Shown piece by piece: positions 26,804-37,581 of a stretch of 64,000 nt of DNA. The DNA is from Paracoccaceae bacterium (lineage in GTDB: Bacteria > Pseudomonadota > Alphaproteobacteria > Rhodobacterales > Rhodobacteraceae): positions 1,649-65,648 of the forward strand of contig JBHJHI010000057.1 in assembly GCA_050330995.1 (NCBI GenBank), written 5' to 3'. Positions within the stretch are counted from its first letter, which is position 1; each line of letters starts with the position of its first letter. A program made the translations under genes and the position numbers. The notes under the pieces were generated by a model. That model saw nothing but the letters and a program-made list of their open reading frames with translations. It was not told where the DNA came from and ran no database searches.

Positions 26804-27406
26804 GGCGGTCGCCCCGCCCGACCTGAACGGCCAGGCGCCACGGGAGATCGTCAGGAACGGCGACTTGCGTCGCACGGCCAACGGCGGCTTGCGCCGCATG
26901 GTCTGGGGCGGCCGTCGCACGAGCCTTCTGGCGGGTAGAGTGGCTGATGCCCGAAGCTTGGGGAGGTCTCGTCGTCGTGTGGGGTCCGCCCGCGATCCGC
27001 TCCCATGGTGTCGGCGCTGGAAAGCGAACGGTTCGATCCATAGCCCCGAAAGGCGATCCCGCACCGAACACGCTCGCCTCGGGTGCGGTCGATCCGAGCG
27101 GGCATGACCGGCGAGCGCCTTCGGGATGCCGCCCGGCGAGGCGCGGTCCACGCCGGGAAGCAGACGATTCTGCGCGACGAGGGCGGCGTGGCGGCGTTCC
27201 CCGTCAACCACGCCACGGCGCTGCGCGGCACGGTGCGCCACGGCCGGATGGCGTCGGACGACGCCTTCCGGCCGGCGCCTTGCGGAACGGTGGTGGCCCG
27301 GGCGAGGCGTCGCGAACGCTCGTCGCCCTCGTGTGCGGTCGAGATCAGGATCGGCGTGCCGGATCGCCGGAGAAGGCCGGACGCATACGGCCGCGCGTCG
27401 CGGGGG

Positions 27407-27823
27407 TCACCTGTTGTCGAGTTTCAGCTCGCGCAGCATCCGCGTCGCGTCCCCGGACTGGGGCGTGCGCCGCGCCAGGTCGGTGAAGCGGTTCGACGGC
27501 GCGTCGTCGCCGAGGAGGTCGCCGAGGCCGTCGATCCTGACGTCCTCGCCGTCGGCGCCGAACGCGCCGTCCAGGAACGAGCCGAACGCGTCCTGCAGGG
27601 CGGCGGCGTCGATGTCCCCGCCGGAGAACAGATCCGTGAGGACCGAGACCAGCGGGCTGGCCGCGTCCGCACCGGCCTCGCCCGACGCCGGGCCGGCGGA
27701 CGCGGACCGCCCGCTCTGCTCGACGTTGACGAACTTCGGCTGCGCCTCGGCGGTCGGGGGCGTTCCCCCAGCAATACAAATGGCGAGCGACGTGGTGGTC
27801 GCGAAGCGCAAGACGAATGACAT
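27407..27823 (-). CDS. Hypothetical secreted acidic protein
   Basis: Signal-peptide-like N-terminus ending AEA-Q; Asp/Gly-rich body; RBS-like GGGAG upstream. Confidence 0.55.
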   Translation of the reverse strand: MSFVLRFATTTSLAICIAGGTPPTAEAQPKFVNVEQSGRSASAGPASGEAGADAASPLVSVLTDLFSGGDIDAAALQDAFGSFLDGAFGADGEDVRIDGLGDLLGDDAPSNRFTDLARRTPQSGDATRMLRELKLDNR

Positions 27824-28124
27824 GGCAACTCCCGGTGTACCCGTTCGAATACCTATAATCCCATGTCCTTTAGGATATTCCCCGATCCGGGCGAGAAAAA
27901 GGAGCATCTCCGATTTGCAACTCCGGCGCGAGGTGCCGTTTCCTTCCGGGAACGAGGCGGCTGGCTCGTCGCTCCGGCGGGCCGGCGTCCGCCTGCCGCC
28001 GACCCGTCGCGCGTCCGGTCGAACCGCCACCAGCGACCGGAGCGCGTGACCCGATCCTGCCGTGTCGCGCGTTCCGGGCTCTCTTTCCGGCGCGCTCTCG
28101 TCCCGCTCGGGCGGGACGAGCGCT

Positions 28125-29633
28125 CTACTGCGCCGGGACCGGCTGCTTGCGATCGCGTTCGGTGATGATCGAGAACAGGCGCTGCTGCTCGGCCGCCCAG
28201 GCCTCGATGTCGTAGCGGCGCACCTTGTCGCGAAGCGCGCTCATGCGCGCGCGACGCTCCTCCTCGCCCATGGCGAGCGCCTGATCGATCGCGCTGTCCA
28301 TCGAGCGGTGCGAGAACGGATTGCAGAGCACCGCCTCCTCCATCTCGATCGCCACGCCCGCGAACTCGGAGAGCACCAGCACGCCGTCGCCGTCGGTGCG
28401 CGCGGCGACGAACTCCTCGGCGACGAGGTTGAGCCCGTCGGCGAGCGGCGTGATCCAGGCGACGTCGGCCGCGCGGTAGTAGGCCACGAGATCGCGGAAC
28501 GGGATCGGCGTCGAGATGAGCGAGACGGGCTGCCACTCGAACGAGCCGTAGGCGCCGTTGAGGCGGCCGGCGGTCGTCTCGATGGTCTCCTGCACCTCGG
28601 CGTAGGCCTCCATGTTGCGGTTGGCGCTGACCGAGACGTGCATGAGGCGGACCTGCTTGTGCAGATCCGGCCGGCGCTGCAGCAGCCGCTCGTAGGCCTG
28701 GAGCAGTTCGACGCCGCCCTTGGTGTAGTCGGTGCGCCCGACCGAGATCACGAGCCGCTTCTCGCCGAGCTCCTCCTCGATCTCGCGCTGGAGGCTCGCG
28801 GTCTCCTCCGAGCGCGCGACCTCGTCGATGTAGTCGACGTCGACGCCCACCGGGAAGGACGACAGCAGGATGCGCCGGCCCTCGTACTCGATCTCGGTCG
28901 GGGTCGACTGCTCGGAGAGCGCCTGTCCCGAGGGCGAGAAGTCCGACCGGGTCTTCTCCTTGTCGGTGACGCGGATGTCGAAGCGCGAGTGCGCCACGCT
29001 GACGAAGTTGGCCGCGTAGCGCGGGATGTGAAAGCCGATGACGTCGCAGGCGAGCAGGGACTCGACGATCTCGCGCCGCCAGGGCAGCACGTTGAACATG
29101 TCCGCGGCCGGGAACGGCGTGTGGTGGAAGAAGGCGATCTTGGCCTCGGGCTTCAGGCGGCGCACGTACTGCGGCACCAGCCAGAGGTTGTAGTCGTGCA
29201 CCCAGATCACGCTGTCGTCGTCGGCCTCGGCCGCCGCCGCCTCGGCGAAGGCCCAGTTGACCTCGCGAAACGTCGGCCAGTCGACGGGGTCGTAGTTATA
29301 GCGATCCTTGAACGAGTGCAGGATCGGCCAGATCGCCTCCTTCGAGGTGACGTGGTAGAAGCTCGATACCTGCTCCTTGGTGAGCGGCAGGCGGCTCACC
29401 GTGTAGCTGCCGTAGCTGTCGTCGATCTCGACCCGGCGCTCGAAGTCGGGATTGGCGGGGTCGTCGGCGTATTTCCAGGCGATCCAGGCGCCGTCGCGGT
29501 TGCGCCCGAAGAACGACTTGAGCGTCGGCACGATGCCGTTCGGGCTCTTGTTCTCCTTGCGGACGAGCTGGCCGTTCTCGACCACCTCCTCGTAGGGCTG
29601 GCGGTGATAGACGATGACGAGCTTGGCGGTCAT
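28125..29633 (-). CDS. ggpS: Glucosylglycerol-phosphate synthase (GT20)
   Basis: N-terminal [10 protein letters not shown]...[10 protein letters not shown] characteristic of GgpS rather than OtsA; [33 protein letters not shown]. Confidence 0.88.
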
Positions 29634-30520
29634 AGGATCCCCCGTGGCGCCGGATCGTGCAGGCCGAAGTGGCTGATAGCGTCCATGATGCCGGCGGCGC
29701 CCTCGCCTTCGGCCTTCAGGACGCGCTCGCTGTCGGGCAGGCGCGCGAGCAGTTCCGCCTCGCTGTTGCCGACGGCGACGGCGCGGAAAGCGTCCTGCGA
29801 CAGCATCGACAGATCGTTCAGTGTGTCGCCCGCGACCAGGACCCGGTCGTCGGTGATGCCGAGCCGGCGGGTCAGGCGCAAGAGCGACGGTCCCTTGGAG
29901 ACGCCCCTCGGCAGGACGTCGAAGAAGCGGTCGTCGGAGACCAGCCAGTCGAGACCCATCTCCTCGACCGCGCCCTTGGCGTCCTCGTCGAACGCCTTGG
30001 GGTCGAGGTCGTAGCTGACGCGGAAGCGGTGCGGCTCGGGTTGCAGGGTCAGGCCCGGCCAGCCGTCCAGGCGCTCGCGCACCTTATCGCCGGCGTCGCC
30101 CCAAGCTTCGGCGATCGCCTCTTCCAGCTCCATCATCGGGCGGACCTCGCCACCTGGGCCGACCGGGGCCATCTTGGCGATGGTGGTGCCGACGTCGCCC
30201 ACGACGAAGTCCGGCCAGGGCACGAAGCCGTCGCCGCACATCCCTTCGATGAACTTCGGGTCGCGTCCGGTGACGAAGATCAGCCCGACGCTCGCGCGGT
30301 GCTTCCCGATCCAGTCGTAGAGCTGGCGGCGATCCCCGTCGGTGCCGCCGAGGAAGGTGCCGTCGAGGTCGGTCGCGAGCACGAAGGTCCAGGCTTCGGC
30401 GTGCGCGCGCATCTCCTCCAGCGGGCCGGACTGGGTGCAGTCGTAGCGCGCGGTGTGCTGCTCCATGTGCCGGTAGGCCCGGCCGGGCTTCACGGTCAGA
30501 AGGTCGCGCCAGTCGGTCAT
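29630..30520 (-). CDS. HAD-IIB family hydrolase (SPP/MPGP-like; candidate glucosylglycerol-phosphate phosphatase)
   Basis: LATDLDGT motif I, VTGR motif II, DVLPRGVSKG, AGDTLNDLSM motif IV; ATGA overlap with ggpS. Confidence 0.8.
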   Translation of the reverse strand: MTDWRDLLTVKPGRAYRHMEQHTARYDCTQSGPLEEMRAHAEAWTFVLATDLDGTFLGGTDGDRRQLYDWIGKHRASVGLIFVTGRDPKFIEGMCGDGFVPWPDFVVGDVGTTIAKMAPVGPGGEVRPMMELEEAIAEAWGDAGDKVRERLDGWPGLTLQPEPHRFRVSYDLDPKAFDEDAKGAVEEMGLDWLVSDDRFFDVLPRGVSKGPSLLRLTRRLGITDDRVLVAGDTLNDLSMLSQDAFRAVAVGNSEAELLARLPDSERVLKAEGEGAAGIMDAISHFGLHDPAPRGIL

Positions 30521-30524
30521 GAGG

Positions 30525-31667
30525 TCATTCCTCCCAGGCGGCGGCGAAGCGTCGGATCGCGCCGCGGTCTGCGGGGTGGGCGAAGACGAGATCGAGCGCC
30601 CGCGGCTCGGCTTCCAGCGGACGGGACCATAGCGCGGCGAAGGCCTCGCCCAAGGGGGCGCCTTCGTGGACCACCGCGCGCACGGTCTCGCAGATCGGCA
30701 TGTGGATGCCGTGCCGGCGCGCGAGCTCGGTCGCGGCGACGGCGTTGCGATGACCCTCGACCACCACGTTGCGCCCGTCGAAGATCTCCGAGCCGCGCTT
30801 GCCGCGGCCGTACTCGACGCCGTAGCTGAAGTTGCGCGAGGCGTCGTTCGAGCAGGTCAGCACCAGATCGCCCATGCCCGAGAGGCCGGTGACGGTCTCG
30901 CGCCGGCCGCCCAAAGCCTCGGCGAGCACCTTCATCTCGTCGCAGCCGCGGGTGATGAGCGCGGCGCGGGTGTTGGCCGCGAAGCCCGCGCCCGTGGCCA
31001 TGCCGCAGGCGATGGCGAGCACGTTCTTGACCGCGCCGCCTACCTCGACGCCGGTCAGGTCGTCGGAGACGTAGGGCCGGAAGCTGCCGGTGGTCATCGA
31101 GACCGCCATGCGGGTGGCCAGTTGCTCCTCCGGCGCGCGGTCGGGGTCGTGGGCGAAGTCGGAGGCCACCGTGACCGCGGTCGGGTCGCCGCGCGCGGTC
31201 TCCTTGGCGAAGGACGGCCCCGAGAGCGCCCCGACCGGACGGCCGGGCGCGGCGTGCTGCACCACGTCGGCCATCAGATAGCCGGTGTCGTCCTCGATGC
31301 CCTTGGCGCAGACCACCACCGGCACGCCCGGCGCCAGCACGCGGTCGAGTTCCTCGGCGATGGCCCGCACCGTGCCCGAGGGCGTGACCAGCAGCACCGC
31401 CTCGGCGCCCTCGCAGGCGTCGGCCATGTCGGGCGTCGCGTGCAGCGAGGGCGGAACCGGGATGTCGTCCAGATAGTGCGAATTGCGATGGCGGCGGTTG
31501 ATCTCCTCGCAGGTCTCGGGGGCGCGCGCCCAGAGCCGGGCGTGGCGGCCGGCCTCGGCGGCGACGATAGCGAGCGCGGTACCCCAGGCGCCGCCGCCGA
31601 GCACGGCGATGCGCCGGTAGGGGCGGACCCAGAGCGGTTCCGGCTCGCGCGATTGATCTGCGTCCAT
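30525..31667 (-). CDS. gpsA: NAD(P)H-dependent glycerol-3-phosphate dehydrogenase
   Basis: GGGAWGTAL, CAKGIE, SGPSFA, GGAVKNVLAIACG, GDLVLTC, SRNFSYG, VEG. Confidence 0.92.
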   Translation of the reverse strand: MDADQSREPEPLWVRPYRRIAVLGGGAWGTALAIVAAEAGRHARLWARAPETCEEINRRHRNSHYLDDIPVPPSLHATPDMADACEGAEAVLLVTPSGTVRAIAEELDRVLAPGVPVVVCAKGIEDDTGYLMADVVQHAAPGRPVGALSGPSFAKETARGDPTAVTVASDFAHDPDRAPEEQLATRMAVSMTTGSFRPYVSDDLTGVEVGGAVKNVLAIACGMATGAGFAANTRAALITRGCDEMKVLAEALGGRRETVTGLSGMGDLVLTCSNDASRNFSYGVEYGRGKRGSEIFDGRNVVVEGHRNAVAATELARRHGIHMPICETVRAVVHEGAPLGEAFAALWSRPLEAEPRALDLVFAHPADRGAIRRFAAAWEE

Positions 31668-31720
31668 GTCTGCGGGACCTCTCGATGCACGGAGGGGACG
31701 CGCGAACGCGGGACGGCGTT

Positions 31721-31763
31721 CGCCCGGTCACGACTCGTGAAAGGTAAGGTGCCTGACCGGGCG
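31721..31763. terminator. Hairpin between mrpG and gpsA
   Basis: CGCCCGGTCA (31721-31730) and TGACCGGGCG (31754-31763) form a perfect 10-bp inverted repeat; role (terminator or operator) unresolved. Confidence 0.3.
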
Positions 31764-31790
31764 CGGCAAAGGGTTCCGCGTTCTAGCGCG

Positions 31791-32195
31791 TCAGTCGGCG
31801 CCGGCTTCCGCCCCGTCCTTCGGCGCGAGGCCCGGCGCGCGCGTCGCGCCCGGGGCGCGCTCGTGGCGCATGAAGATGCGCGCGCCCTCGTCGATCTCGG
31901 TGCGCGACCACAGCGGCGAGCCGGTGCGGTAGGCGGCGCGGCCGATCAGGTGCGAGCCGACCGGCGCGGTCACGATCATGAACACCGAGACCAGCACCGC
32001 CTTCAGGATGATGTCGAGCGCGGGCGTGACGAAGGCCATGGCGCCGACGAGAAAGATCAGCCCCAGCGTGCCCGCCTTGGTCGCCGCGTGCATGCGCATG
32101 AACACGTCGGGAAAGCGCACCACGCCGAGCCCGGCGGCGAAGCAGAACACTCCGCCGAGCACCAGCAGGAGCGCGCCCAGGATCTCAAGGGCCAT
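31791..32195 (-). CDS. mrpG: Mrp Na+/H+ antiporter subunit G
   Basis: RFPDVFMRMHAATKAGTLG, TAPVGSHLIGRAAY. Confidence 0.92.
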   Translation of the reverse strand: MALEILGALLLVLGGVFCFAAGLGVVRFPDVFMRMHAATKAGTLGLIFLVGAMAFVTPALDIILKAVLVSVFMIVTAPVGSHLIGRAAYRTGSPLWSRTEIDEGARIFMRHERAPGATRAPGLAPKDGAEAGAD

Positions 32196-32514
32196 ATTCG
32201 TCGTCCTTCGGCGCGGGGTCCTCGGGGTCGCGGCGCTCGACGTAGCGCGCGAACGCGACGGTGGAGAGGAACGACACCAGCGACAGCGCCAGCGCCGCGT
32301 CGAGATAGCTCGGCACCTCGAGCGCGATCGCGAGCAGCACGAGGAGCGCGGCGAGCAGCATGGTCAGCAGGTCGAGCGCGACCACCCGGTCGGCGAGGGT
32401 GGGGCCGGCGAGCAGGCGGTAGGTCGCGAGCAGCGCCCCCGCGATCACTAGGAGCCCCGCGATCGCGGCGCCCCAGGCCAGCGGCCCGTCGAGGGTCGAG
32501 GCGAGCACGCTCAT
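32185..32514 (-). CDS. mrpF: Mrp Na+/H+ antiporter subunit F
   Basis: RLLAGPTLADRVVALD, SFLSTVAFARY. Confidence 0.92.
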   Translation of the reverse strand: MSVLASTLDGPLAWGAAIAGLLVIAGALLATYRLLAGPTLADRVVALDLLTMLLAALLVLLAIALEVPSYLDAALALSLVSFLSTVAFARYVERRDPEDPAPKDDEYGP

Positions 32515-32858
32515 TCCGTGGCCCTGATGACCATGCGCTCCATCCCGTTCTTGAGCGAGGCGTTCACGGCGTCGGCGCCCTCCTCGGCGTACATGGCGTG
32601 GATCAGCAGGTAACGGCGGCAGTCCGAGACGTCGACGGTCAGCGTGCCCGGCGTCAGCGTGATCAGGTTGGCCGTCATCGTGATCGAGAGATCGGTCTTC
32701 GCGTCGAGCGGCATCGCCACGAAGCGCGGCGTCGAAGACAGGCCCGGCGTCAGCACGTCGATGAAGACGCGCACCGCGCTCAGGATCAGCTCCTTGGCGA
32801 AGTAGACCACCAGGAAGACGATGTGGAAGGGCTTCAGGAGCAGTCGGACCAGGATCAT
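32511..32858 (-). CDS. mrpE: Mrp Na+/H+ antiporter subunit E
   Basis: ANLITLTPGTLTVDV, LLIHAM. Confidence 0.92.
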   Translation of the reverse strand: MILVRLLLKPFHIVFLVVYFAKELILSAVRVFIDVLTPGLSSTPRFVAMPLDAKTDLSITMTANLITLTPGTLTVDVSDCRRYLLIHAMYAEEGADAVNASLKNGMERMVIRATE

Positions 32859-34345
32859 CGGCTCTCGCTCCCGAGAACGGTGCGCAGGTAAGGCAGGGGG
32901 TCGAGCAGCGCGCGCGCCGCGCCGTCGGCCAGCTCGAACATCACGCCGGCGTAGAGGCTGATGCCGAGCGTCACCGCCGTCAGCCCCAGCACGGGCAGCA
33001 CCAGCGCCGGCGTCGGATCGAGGCTCGCGGGCGTGTCGTCCGCCGCCTCCGGGCGCGGCGCCCAGAAGGCCGAGACGAACATGCGGCCGAGATAGTAGAA
33101 GGTCAGGACGCTCGCCGCGAGGATCATGCCGCCGAGCAGGTACTCGCCCGCCTCGACCGCGCCGCGCACCATGAACAGCTTCGCCCAGAAGCCCGAGAGC
33201 GGCGGCACGCCGATCAGCGACAGCGCCGGCACCAGGAAGATCACGCCGAGCCAGGGGCCGGCGGCCCAGAGCCCGCCGACGCGGCTCACCCGCTCGTCAC
33301 CGCACTCGCGTCCCATGATGCCGCCGATCAGGAACATGTTCATCATCGCCGGGATGTGGTGGAGGAAGTAGAACACCGAGGCCGCAAGCGCGAGCGGCGT
33401 CGCCAGCGCCACGCCGATCGTCATCACCCCGATCTGGCTGACGATGTGGAAGCCGAACACGCGGCGCATGTGGTCCTGCGCCGTGGCGCCGAGCGCGCCT
33501 AGCACCAGCGTCACCCCCGCCGCGACGAGCAGCACGTTCGAGATGATCGGGTCGCCCGGCGCGAACACCAGGGTGAAGACGCGGAGCAGCGAGTAGACCC
33601 CGACCTTGGTCAGCAGCGCCGAGAACAGCGCCGAGGTCGCCACCGCCGGCGTGTGGTAGGCGGCTGGCAGCCAGAAGAACACCGGAAACAGCGCCGCCTT
33701 GGCCGCGAAGGCGAACAGCAGCAGCCCCGCCGCGCCGACCACCGCGGTCTCGCCGGAGCGGCCGTCGAGCTTGATCGCCAGGTCGGCCATGTTGAGCGTG
33801 CCGGTCGCGCCGTAGAGGAGCCCGACGCCGGCGAGGAAGGCGAGCGTGCCGATCAGGTTCAGCGCCACGTACTTGACGGCGCCGTCGATCTGCGCGCGTC
33901 CGCCGCCGATCACGAGGAGGCCGAAGGACGAGATCAGCATGACCTCGAACCAGACGTAGAGGTTGAACAGATCCCCGGTGACGAAGGCGCCGCAGACGCC
34001 GGCGAGCATGGCGTGGCCGAGCGCGTGAAAGCCCAGCCGCTCGGCCTCGGCGTCGACCTCGTGGAAGGCGTAGGCGAAGGCGGCGAGCCCGGCGCCCCCG
34101 GCGATCGTGACCATCACCGCCGAGAGCGTGTCGACGGCGAGCGTGATGCCGAAGGGCGCGGCCCAGCCGCCCATCTGCACGGCCTGCGGGCCGTCGATCA
34201 GCGCCGCCGAGAGGAGCGCGAGCCCGACCGCGAGCAGCCCGAGCGCGGAGAACAGCGAGACCCAGCGGTGCACGCCCCGGCGGCGCAGCAGGAAGCAGAC
34301 GACCGCGGTGGCGAGCGGCAGCAGGATGGGGGCGGCGAGCAGCAT
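32855..34345 (-). CDS. mrpD: Mrp Na+/H+ antiporter subunit D
   Basis: GDLFNLYVWFEVML, KAALFPVFFWLPAAY, LTKVGVY, GVPPLSGFWAK. Confidence 0.92.
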   Translation of the reverse strand: MLLAAPILLPLATAVVCFLLRRRGVHRWVSLFSALGLLAVGLALLSAALIDGPQAVQMGGWAAPFGITLAVDTLSAVMVTIAGGAGLAAFAYAFHEVDAEAERLGFHALGHAMLAGVCGAFVTGDLFNLYVWFEVMLISSFGLLVIGGGRAQIDGAVKYVALNLIGTLAFLAGVGLLYGATGTLNMADLAIKLDGRSGETAVVGAAGLLLFAFAAKAALFPVFFWLPAAYHTPAVATSALFSALLTKVGVYSLLRVFTLVFAPGDPIISNVLLVAAGVTLVLGALGATAQDHMRRVFGFHIVSQIGVMTIGVALATPLALAASVFYFLHHIPAMMNMFLIGGIMGRECGDERVSRVGGLWAAGPWLGVIFLVPALSLIGVPPLSGFWAKLFMVRGAVEAGEYLLGGMILAASVLTFYYLGRMFVSAFWAPRPEAADDTPASLDPTPALVLPVLGLTAVTLGISLYAGVMFELADGAARALLDPLPYLRTVLGSESR

Positions 34346-34346
34346 C

Positions 34347-34724
34347 TCAGTCCGCCCCGGGCCGGTTGACTTCCGTTTCGGGCTCGGCCTCGCGGATCGC
34401 GGCGCTGTCGGTGGTGCCGAAGGTGATGTAGGCGCGCAGCACCAGCGAGAGCGTGAAGACCAGAAGACCGAAGCCGATCACGATCGCCGTCAGGATCAGC
34501 GCCTGAGGCAGCGCGTTGGCGGCGCCCGCGGGGGGCGTCTCGGCGCCGGGCGGCACCAGCGGCGGCTCGCCGTAGGTGAGCCGCCCGGACGCGAAGATCA
34601 CGAGGTTGACCGCGTTCGACAGGATGGTGAGCCCGAACAGCACGCGGATCAGGTTCGACGACATCATCAGATAGGCGCCGCAGGCGATCAGGATGCCGAC
34701 GACGACGGCGAGGGAGGGTTCCAT
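34347..34724 (-). CDS. mrpC: Mrp Na+/H+ antiporter subunit C
   Basis: ILSNAVNL, PQALILTAIVIGF. Confidence 0.92.
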   Translation of the reverse strand: MEPSLAVVVGILIACGAYLMMSSNLIRVLFGLTILSNAVNLVIFASGRLTYGEPPLVPPGAETPPAGAANALPQALILTAIVIGFGLLVFTLSLVLRAYITFGTTDSAAIREAEPETEVNRPGAD

Positions 34725-35209
34725 CAGTCCCGCTCCCCCCCGGTCCGGCCGCGCGGGCGATCGCTGCCGTGGCGCGAGAGCGCCGCGAGCGCGGCCGCCT
34801 CGAGCGTGAACAGCATCCCCGTGACGCCGCCCACCACGACGAGGAACACGCCGGTGTCGAACAGCAGGATCGAGCCCACCGGCTTCAGCGCGCCGCCGAG
34901 CGTCGGGTCGCCGTAGAACGGCCAGACGCCCGCGAGCACCGCGCCCTCGGCGATCGCGCCCCAGAGCGCGGAGGCGACGGCGCAGGCGAGGCCGAGCGCC
35001 GAGATCGCGAGCGGCTCGACGCGCACGAGCCGGCGCGCGCGCGTGAGCCCGCCCGCCTTCGCGATCAGCGCGAGCGCGATCGCCGCGATCAGCCCGCCGA
35101 TGAAGCCCCCGCCAGGCTCGTTGTGCCCGCGCAGCAGCACCACGATCGAGAAGACGACGAGGAGCGGCGCGAGCAGGCGCGCCGCCGTCGACAGGATCAG
35201 CGAGTTCAT
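34724..35209 (-). CDS. mrpB: Mrp Na+/H+ antiporter subunit B (separate gene)
   Basis: [25 protein letters not shown]; ATG at 35209. Confidence 0.9.
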
Positions 35210-37581
35210 TGCACCCCCTCGCGCCGAGCCTGGTCGGCGGTCTCGCGCGCGCCGCCCGAGAGCGTGACGCCCTTGCCCGCGGTCAGCGCGGCGACCGCGC
35301 CGAGCGAGGCGATCACGATCACCGAAATCTCGCCCAAGGTGTCGAGCGCGCGGAAGTCGACCAGGATCACGTTGACGATGTTCTGCCCGTGCGCCACCGG
35401 GTACGAGTTCTGCTCGAAGAAGCGGGTGAGTTCCAGATCGATCGGCTCGCCCACCACCGAGATCAGCACCGTGGTCACGCCGCGGCCGACGGCCGAGGCG
35501 CTCGCGGCGTCGCCGACGCGGAAGCCCTGGCGGTCGGGCACTCGCGGCAGCCGGATCAGCGCGATCGCGAGGAACACCACGATCAGGATCTCGATCATGA
35601 GCTGCGTCATGGCGACGTCGACCGCGCCGTAGAGCACGAAGATGATCGAGACCCCGACGCCGACCGCGCCGAGCGCGCAGATCGCCGTCAGCCGCGAGCG
35701 CGTGAGCACCACCACCGCGACCGAGACCAGGATCACCGCGAAGGTGGCGTAGTCGACCAGCGGCAGGTCGAAGTCGGGCGCGGCGCGGCTGTCGTCGGTG
35801 AGCCCGACCGCGGCCCAGACCACGAGCGCGAGCGCGGCGAAGGTCGCGCGCATGTACCACTCGAGCACGCCGGTCTGGACGTAGCCGGTGACGCCCCTCG
35901 CCACGGCGTCGACGTATCGAAGGGCGTAGTCGTAGCTGCGGTCGGCACTGACGAGCCCGCCGGCCTCCGCGCTCGCGAGCCCCGTGCGGATCGCCCGGTT
36001 GCCGAGCCAGAACAGCACGCCGAGCCCCCAGGTGGCGAGCGAGAGCACGAGGAGGGGCGAGAGCCCGTGCCAGAGCGCGAGATGGCTCTCGACGTGGTGG
36101 CCCAGGATCGAGGACGCCACGGGCGCGGCGAGGTAGTGCCCGGTGACCGGCGCCGCGAGGCCCGCGAGGAGGCCGAGCACGGCGAGCGCCATCGGCCCCG
36201 ACCACATCATCCAGGAGGGGTCCTTCGGCGTCTTGGGACAGGCCTGCGCGCCGCGGAAGAACGGCCCGACCGTCACGATCAGCGCCACCGCCACCATCAT
36301 CGCGTTGGCGACGAAGGCGGCGGCCGTGACCAGCATCGGCTCGGTGACGACGTGGAGCGCGCCCTCGTACATCGCCTCCTTGCCGACATAGCCGATGAAG
36401 GGGGGGAGGCCGGCCATCGAGAGCGCCGCGAGGACCGCCATCGCGGCGGTGATCGGCATGGCCGAGCGCAGCCCCGCGAGGCGGTCGACCTCGCGCGTGC
36501 CCGCCTTCTTGTCGACGCAGCCGATCATGAGGAAGAGCGAGGCCTTGTAGAGCGCGTGGACGACCAGGAAGGTCGTGGCGCCCATCACCGCCTCCTCGGT
36601 GCCGCCGCCGAGGAACATGACGATGGTGCCGAGGCCCATGACGGTGGTGTGCGCGAGCATCTGCTTCAGATCGGACTGCCTGAGCGCCCAGACCGAGCCG
36701 ATCAGCATGGTGGTCGCGCCGAACAGGGTGAGCAGCCAGAACCAGGCGGCGGTGTCGCCGAGCGCCGGCGCCATGCGCATCAGGAGATAGACCCCCGCCT
36801 TCACCATCGTGGCCGAGTGGAGGTAGGCCGAGACCGGCGTCGGCGCGGCCATCGCGCCCGGTAACCAGAAATGGAACGGGAACTGCGCCGACTTGGTGAA
36901 GGCGCCGAGCAGCACGAGCGCGAGGATCGGCGTATACAACGCCGAGGCCGTGATCGCCTCGCCCATCGTATTGAGTTCCGACAGCCTGTAGCTGCCCATC
37001 GCGTCGCCGAGCACCACGAGCCCGCCGAGCAGCGCGCGCCCGCCGAGGCCGGTGCCGAGCAGCGCCTGCAGCGCCGCGCGCCGCGCGTAGGCCTTCTCGT
37101 AGTCGAAGCCGACCAGCAGGAACGAGGTGATGGTCGTGCCCTCCCAGAACACGAACAGCGTCACCACGTCGTCGGCGAGCACGAGCCCGAGCATCGCCAC
37201 CGCGAACAGGAACAGGAGCGACAGGATGCGCGGCGAGCGCGGGTCGCCCTCGAAGTAGCCGGCCGCGTAGAGGAACACCAGCGCGCCGATGCCGGTGACC
37301 AGGAGCGCGAACACGAGGCCGAGGCCGTCGATCAGGAAGGCCAGCTCGATGCCGAGCGGCTCGATCCAGGGGCGCGCGTAGACGTAGGTCTCGCCGTGCG
37401 CGACCGAGGGCAGGTAGGTCAGGAACCACAGGAACGCGATCCCCGAGATCGCCGCGGGCAGGAAGCGCCAGGCGTCGCGGGGGGGCGCCGCGACGACCGC
37501 CTTCGCCACGTCCAGGGCGCGCCGCGGCGTGTCGGCGGCCGGCGCCGTGGTCTCGGGGCCGCGGGTCTTGTCGTCGGGCAT
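35206..37581 (-). CDS. mrpA: Mrp Na+/H+ antiporter subunit A
   Basis: [68 protein letters not shown]. Confidence 0.92.

Follow-up and report, generated by a model that had tools for sequence, protein, structure and literature searches.

The window analyzed here, a 64,000-nucleotide stretch of the genome of a Paracoccaceae bacterium, contains a three-gene operon, gpsA-HAD-ggpS, which in our view almost certainly synthesizes the osmolyte glucosylglycerol (GG). Its middle gene codes for a stand-alone phosphatase of the HAD-IIB class that would be the split counterpart of the phosphatase domain of the fused GgpPS enzymes, and its gpsA, the sole recognizable de novo source of glycerol-3-phosphate in the genome, probably serves lipid synthesis too; we hold this combined reading with high confidence. 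In the proposed pathway GpsA would convert dihydroxyacetone phosphate to glycerol-3-phosphate, GgpS would glucosylate the latter with a nucleotide sugar as donor to give GG-phosphate, and the HAD protein would split GG-phosphate into GG and phosphate, while the same single GpsA would feed both phospholipid and GG synthesis. The operon lies in a region with a G+C content of about 70-73%, in a genome assembly of 4.02 Mb that is distributed over 122 contigs and is 94.8% complete. It is an ordinary, intact and well-conserved representative of the split GgpPS type, and the one feature that sets it apart is its gpsA, for which the genome yielded no second copy.

The operon consists of three co-directional open reading frames (ORFs) on the minus strand at 28125-31667, in the order of transcription gpsA, HAD and ggpS. 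The stop codon of gpsA is separated by 4 nucleotides from the ATG of the HAD gene, which is preceded at a distance of 9 nucleotides from Met1 by a GGAGG motif, and the stop codon of the HAD gene overlaps the start codon of ggpS in the form ATGA. GpsA contains the Pfam domains PF01210 (E 1.5e-48) and PF07479 (E 1.2e-46), along with PF20618, and passes the NCBIfam GpsA-subfamily model NF000942, scoring 383.9 bits where 257 are required. Coordinates, family scores, the short gap and the overlap all agree with the first-pass annotation, an earlier reading made from the letters alone, which had described these genes as a single tightly packed operon. Scans for promoters and terminators across positions 27000-32400 gave no signal above chance.

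The last gene of the operon codes for the only glycosyltransferase of the GT20 family in the whole genome (PF00982, E 5e-129), with the GT20 domain spanning residues 4-484 of the 502 residues of the protein. It scores above the cut-off of TIGR02398, the GgpS equivalog model (645.8 bits versus 569), and below those of the OtsA models TIGR02400 (408.9 versus 564.85) and a second OtsA model (247.2 versus 759); a bifunctional trehalose-phosphate synthase/phosphatase model is likewise far under its cut-off. The protein is 62% identical to the ggpS product of Dinoroseobacter shibae and 46% identical to the C-terminal domain of the GgpPS fusions. It is predicted to make GG-phosphate from NDP-glucose and glycerol-3-phosphate, a prediction supported indirectly by its coupling and fusion to gpsA and by the D. 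shibae orthologue. As for the glucose donor, the genome contains glgC (473 bits versus a cut-off of 425), which would provide ADP-glucose, and a galU-like gene, which would provide UDP-glucose; either might be used. G011, a genome of the same genus that is 87% complete, has two GT20 genes (C139:8080-9522 and C618:12-1247) whose GgpS scores of 522 and 483 bits fall just short of the cut-off of 569. In this genome a HAD partner was not found for either of them, and they may belong to a divergent GgpS-like subgroup.

The HAD protein contains the S6PP domain PF05116 (E 2.1e-43, residues 46-287) together with PF08282, and all its matches among the Pfam families are of the HAD type. The motifs DLDGT, VTGR, SKG and GDTLND are invariant in 21 aligned homologues, as are the residues D51, D53, T84, K209, D232 and D236. 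The AlphaFold2 (AF2) model of the protein (pLDDT 87.9) shows the HAD-IIB fold, and its best match among solved structures is the sucrose-phosphatase (SPP) of Synechocystis (1s2o; TM 0.79 on the target, 26% identity), followed by other HAD-IIB sugar phosphatases. While SPP shares with it the HAD core and a C2B-type cap, the window protein fails the SPP equivalog TIGR01485 (77.6 bits versus a cut-off of 183.65) and has ggpS as its genomic partner. It is considerably closer to the HAD domain of the GgpPS fusions, to which it is 42% identical over the whole core, versus 28% for an SPS-like HAD and 26% for SPP. Such fusions of about 740-780 residues, with PF05116 and PF08282 at the N-terminus and PF00982 at the C-terminus, bear the annotation glucosylglycerol-phosphate synthase in numerous organisms, Marinobacter, Aquabacterium, Thauera and Halioxenophilus among them. 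In a maximum-likelihood tree 30 stand-alone alphaproteobacterial HAD proteins form one clade (support 100/100) beside the HAD domains of the fused GgpPS proteins; the tree has a single outgroup, the SPS-like HAD, which sits on a very long branch. Moreover, a metagenomic protein of low G+C origin (P0125, 1073 residues) is a natural triple fusion in which GpsA, HAD and GgpS follow one another as their genes do in the operon, which provides a Rosetta-stone argument that all three act together. Judged by these sequence relationships, the HAD protein corresponds, in free-standing form, to the N-terminal phosphatase domain of the gamma- and betaproteobacterial GgpPS enzymes rather than being an StpA-type enzyme or a third invention, and it is very probably the GG-phosphate phosphatase, being the best candidate for that step.

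To examine the conservation of this association we used a pattern scan with one genome per species, which recovered at least 579 genomes with a relative of the HAD protein, and compared the loci of the best 80 of these at least 579 species. These 80 loci belong to Rhodobacterales, such as Maritimibacter, Roseivivax, Rhodovulum, Celeribacter, Salipiger, Palleronia, Thermohalobaculum and others, and to Hoeflea and Oricola. The ggpS gene is immediately downstream of the HAD gene in 79 of them, with the one exception cut by a contig end, and gpsA is immediately upstream in 71. Among 41 related genomes the HAD gene is present in eight, and TIGR02398 is matched above its cut-off in exactly those eight. 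Clustering of the flanking ORFs of the 80 loci revealed no conserved GG hydrolase, phosphorylase, transporter or other partner beyond the three genes, save for a galU-like gene that is divergently oriented to gpsA in 23 of the loci (e.g. L016:2443-3405, minus strand; TIGR01099 266.5 bits, cut-off 326.8). This may hint at UDP-glucose as the donor in the carriers with such a linkage; in the window the galU-like gene does not adjoin the operon, and a homologue is on contig C105.

Taken together, the gene identities, co-occurrence and adjacency bear out the proposal of the first-pass annotation that this is a self-contained GG operon. They equally favor its assignment of the phosphatase slot to the HAD-IIB protein, as GgpS has no fused phosphatase domain of its own and the two genes keep company in the same genomes and side by side. 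The further suggestion that the phosphatase is of a non-StpA kind is also supported: the StpA model TIGR02399 has no match in the whole genome, in a search that had no positive control, as the model matched none of the control genomes either. What does not stand is the notion of a third, new type of GG-phosphate phosphatase, which we ruled out on finding that the N-terminal domain of GgpPS belongs to the same Pfam families, is 42% identical and falls in a neighboring clade. A survey of literature on ggpS in combination with Rhodobacteraceae, Rhodovulum and roseobacters brought up no description of a stand-alone phosphatase.

The gpsA gene offers the more unexpected picture. PF01210 and PF07479 have one match each in the genome, which is the operon gpsA, and housekeeping GpsA queries from Maritimibacter, Hoeflea and a genome of the same genus likewise recover the operon copy as their sole match, at 38-42% identity. 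The window protein shares 53-78% identity with GpsA encoded in the operons of other species, versus 38-42% with the housekeeping proteins, which marks its gene as one of the operon type rather than a housekeeping gene that has moved. In Maritimibacter (L093) and in two operon-free genomes of the same genus (G019, L101; G015, L102) the housekeeping gpsA directly follows tsaD. The genome's own tsaD is at C94:43585-44769 on a contig of 46.8 kb, where its upstream neighbors are assembled and the contig continues for 43 kb, and no gpsA follows it; the gene that comes after gpsA in G019 maps elsewhere, on contig C37. Within the genus, seven further genomes carry the operon, four of them 99-100% complete, and in these too the operon gpsA is the only one detected; Thermohalobaculum xanthum M0105 (L061), in which the operon likewise holds the sole gpsA, corresponds to the same-genus genome G016/G044. 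An operon gpsA together with a second gpsA is found in Maritimibacter, Marinibacterium, Rhodovulum adriaticum and one Hoeflea genome.

The simplest reading of these observations is that the housekeeping gpsA was lost and displaced by the operon gpsA in the lineage of the Thermohalobaculum relatives. The operon gene would then need to be expressed at all salinities, and it probably supplies glycerol-3-phosphate for lipids as well. This departs from the first-pass annotation, which had taken the gpsA copy to be dedicated to osmolyte supply and had called for a count of its paralogues. That count yields none besides the operon copy in this 94.8% complete genome, and with a sole gpsA and an empty tsaD slot the idea of a dedicated copy fails here, though it holds in typical Rhodobacteraceae and in Hoeflea.

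The reading of the operon as a GG pathway has two competitors. The GT20 protein could be a trehalose-6-phosphate synthase, or use some other acceptor, in which case the operon would make trehalose or another glucoside. The family is mostly known through OtsA, the best solved structures for this GT20 are all trehalose-phosphate synthases, and several homologues of the neighboring HAD protein carry the database label 'alpha,alpha-trehalose-phosphate synthase', which is a mislabelling. We regard this as extremely improbable, given that the protein passes the GgpS equivalog while all three trehalose-phosphate synthase models stay far under their cut-offs, that its conserved coupling and fusion with gpsA points to glycerol-3-phosphate as the acceptor, that the orthologous D. 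shibae locus is credited with GG synthesis in a passage of PMC9176285, and that a tblastn search of the genome did not turn up an OtsB-like phosphatase. Among the other pathway genes searched for, one of the GH13_18 sucrose-phosphorylase type was not found in the genome, nor was an ectoine synthase; the latter result is of little weight, as the model was matched in no control genome. Alternatively, the HAD protein might be a broad phosphatase or one for another sugar phosphate, of the sucrose-6-phosphate type or serving an SPS-like glycosyltransferase of the GT4 family on contig C35, so that its adjacency to ggpS would not entail specificity for GG-phosphate. Its top Pfam and PDB matches are indeed sucrose-phosphatases, and the SPS-like GT4 (C35:2282-3544; L100:2225-3670, minus strand), which is located amid GT2 and GT4 genes, has no HAD domain of its own, whereas a plasmid-encoded Sulfitobacter protein, to whose glycosyltransferase part it is 43% identical, is fused to an S6PP-like HAD. 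The lack of a HAD domain in this GT4 is the only hint of a second client for the window phosphatase, and we rate it low; though it is the best SPS-like match in the genome, it reaches 394.5 bits on TIGR02472 with a cut-off of 576, and no bona fide sucrose-phosphate synthase was found in the genome. The failure of the HAD protein on the SPP equivalog, its greater identity to the GgpPS domain than to SPP or the SPS-like HAD, its near-perfect co-occurrence and adjacency with ggpS, and the existence of fusions to GgpS, including the triple fusion with GpsA, make such a broad or different specificity very unlikely.

Several points nevertheless weigh against the preferred reading. On the side of the phosphatase, the stand-alone HAD clade is on a long branch and the tree leaves both placements, as a sister group of the fused forms or nested within them; the StpA search lacked a positive control; and we are aware of no assay of an enzyme from this type of operon as a free-standing GG-phosphate phosphatase. 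As to gpsA, the genome is 94.8% complete, hence the absences are not absolute. Furthermore, three near-complete genomes of the same genus (G001, G005 and G013, 97-99%) have no gpsA of either type when searched with PF01210 and a same-genus GpsA protein, which implies that the lineage may have another source of glycerol-3-phosphate, and glpK is present in the genome (683.8 bits). These last two observations favor the alternative that the operon gpsA is, after all, dedicated to osmolyte supply, with the glycerol-3-phosphate for lipids coming from an unrecognized route or from glycerol kinase, as does the fact that the operon copy is a second gpsA beside the housekeeping one in typical Rhodobacteraceae and Hoeflea. 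We consider this alternative doubtful, because neither the Pfam GpsA domains nor the three housekeeping queries reveal another copy and the conserved tsaD-gpsA slot is assembled without a gpsA. Glycerol kinase, moreover, requires free glycerol and is not a de novo source of glycerol-3-phosphate. Displacement of the housekeeping gene by an operon gpsA with a dual role remains the reading that we prefer.

A close known parallel is in D. shibae DFL12, where the same gpsA-HAD-ggpS operon is found on the 153-kb chromid pDSHI02 (NC_009956). The gene order and the overlapping or abutting gene ends are shared with the window, and the proteins are 58% (GpsA), 58% (HAD) and 62% (GgpS) identical. According to a passage of PMC9176285, which cites Kleist 2017, pDSHI02 encodes the biosynthesis of alpha-GG and is essential for salt tolerance; PMC9426580, citing the same study, describes the replicon as essential under salt shock, and PMC9062515, which cites it too, names glucosylglycerol and glucosylglycerate as compatible solutes of the organism. 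The window operon may be induced by salt. It differs from the D. shibae operon in location, the latter being on a chromid beside genes for general-stress regulators, whereas the window operon comes after mrp genes on a 72-kb contig, which has no plasmid genes in the part examined. It also differs in that the D. shibae HAD protein has 259 residues and no extended leader, and in that the window operon holds the sole gpsA copy.

The GgpPS fusions, which are known from Stenotrophomonas rhizophila, Azotobacter vinelandii, Pseudomonas and Marinobacter and have both synthase and phosphatase activity according to passages of PMC2671616 and PMC10873239 (the activities being cited from Hagemann 2008), combine the same S6PP-type HAD-IIB and GT20 modules. 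The order of the HAD and ggpS genes in the operon equals the N-to-C order of the domains in the fusion. In our comparison the fusions were represented by family members such as those of Aquabacterium and Marinobacter, and not by the exact proteins that were assayed. The window system differs from them in consisting of two translationally coupled genes with gpsA ahead, and with its unfused GgpS it constitutes a split variant. Further HAD-GT20 fusions are found in actinobacteria, for instance a 744-residue protein on a linear plasmid of Kitasatospora sp. NBC_00039 (L097:3848-6082) that is labelled just 'HAD-IIB family hydrolase', with similar matches on plasmid records of Streptomyces and Embleya. 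Their identity with the proteins of the window is 38% for the HAD and 34% for the GT20 part, and they may be GgpPS-like enzymes of Streptomycetaceae. The cyanobacterial pathway, as exemplified by GgpS and GgpP/StpA of Synechocystis sp. PCC 6803, proceeds through the same two steps of a GG-phosphate synthase and a specific phosphatase, and the window GgpS passes the same equivalog. Passages of PMC6753628 and PMC10873239 give ggpS and stpA of cyanobacteria as separate genes, and the former adds that gpsA is co-located with ggpS in some cyanobacteria too. The difference is in the phosphatase, StpA being a member of another phosphatase family.

The HAD protein of the window is further distinguished by its N-terminal leader. 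The first-pass annotation had noted an extension of about 40 residues; the open frame is real, and the net excess amounts to about 20-30 residues, as 12-25 residues before the first HAD strand are already the norm in the family, versus 45 in the window protein if translation starts at Met1. The gene caller places the start at Met37 (P0004, 260 residues). A related sequence is found in the four closest metagenomic homologues (P0005-P0008, 64-80% identical overall) in the form of a variable motif from about Gly13 to Met37 with the approximate consensus GR-Y-HM-QHTAR-DCT-SGP-EEM; neither the genomes that represent the species of the genus in GTDB nor Rhodobacteraceae have this motif. We take the leader to be probably translated. 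Predicted to be disordered for the most part, it has pLDDT values below 50 at residues 1-24 of the AF2 model and a helix at residues 34-43. A regulatory role for it is a matter of speculation. One could imagine that, once the osmolyte gpsA had replaced the housekeeping gene, so that lipid precursors and GG share one enzyme behind mrp, the disordered leader, or another post-translational mechanism that controls GgpS or the HAD protein, came to act as a salt-dependent gate against the drain of glycerol-3-phosphate into GG at low salinity; we offer this as an unlikely scenario.

What makes the locus of interest is chiefly that a very widespread marine osmolyte gene is poorly annotated and that the housekeeping gpsA was apparently replaced. 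In public records the HAD family is named only 'HAD-IIB family hydrolase' and at times, wrongly, trehalose-phosphate synthase, and the present assignment would provide a specific functional name for a gene in at least 579 species genomes, mostly of marine Rhodobacterales. By implication, the usual mention of a 'few heterotrophic bacteria' (PMC10873239) would greatly understate how common GG synthesis is in marine heterotrophs. The split enzyme pair and the GpsA-HAD-GgpS triple fusion are possible parts for biotechnological GG production. The loss of the housekeeping gpsA would illustrate, on a small scale, how a paralogue from a stress pathway can assume an essential role.

Table 1. Position and assignment of the genes and segments discussed, in coordinates of the window
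Feature	Position	Strand	Details
gpsA, NAD(P)H-dependent glycerol-3-phosphate dehydrogenase	30525-31667	-	380 aa; PF01210, PF07479, NF000942; operon type
Stand-alone S6PP-type HAD-IIB phosphatase (predicted)	29630-30520	-	296 aa from Met1, 260 aa from Met37; PF05116
N-terminal leader of the HAD protein, residues 1-45	30385-30520	-	about 20-30 aa over the family norm
ggpS, glucosylglycerol-phosphate synthase (predicted), GT20	28125-29633	-	502 aa; TIGR02398; no fused phosphatase domain
mrpA-G Na+/H+ antiporter operon	31791-37560 (5' end approximate)	-	Pfam MnhB, Oxidored_q2, Proton_antipo_M, MNHE, MrpF, PhaG

On the downstream side, the 1.3-kb segment 26803-28125 between a gene for an IclR-type regulator and the end of ggpS contains only ORFs with no Pfam match (e.g. 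27126-28049, plus strand, 307 residues) and no counterpart in the related loci; it represents either an orphan gene or non-coding DNA. On the upstream side, a complete mrpA-G operon lies on the same strand, 123 nucleotides upstream of gpsA, and only the three genomes most closely related to this one (G012, G020 and G024) share its proximity to the GG operon. An apparent frameshift between mrpA and mrpB was ruled out, as the MnhB domain begins in the next frame at 35206, where mrpA ends, the two being overlapping genes.

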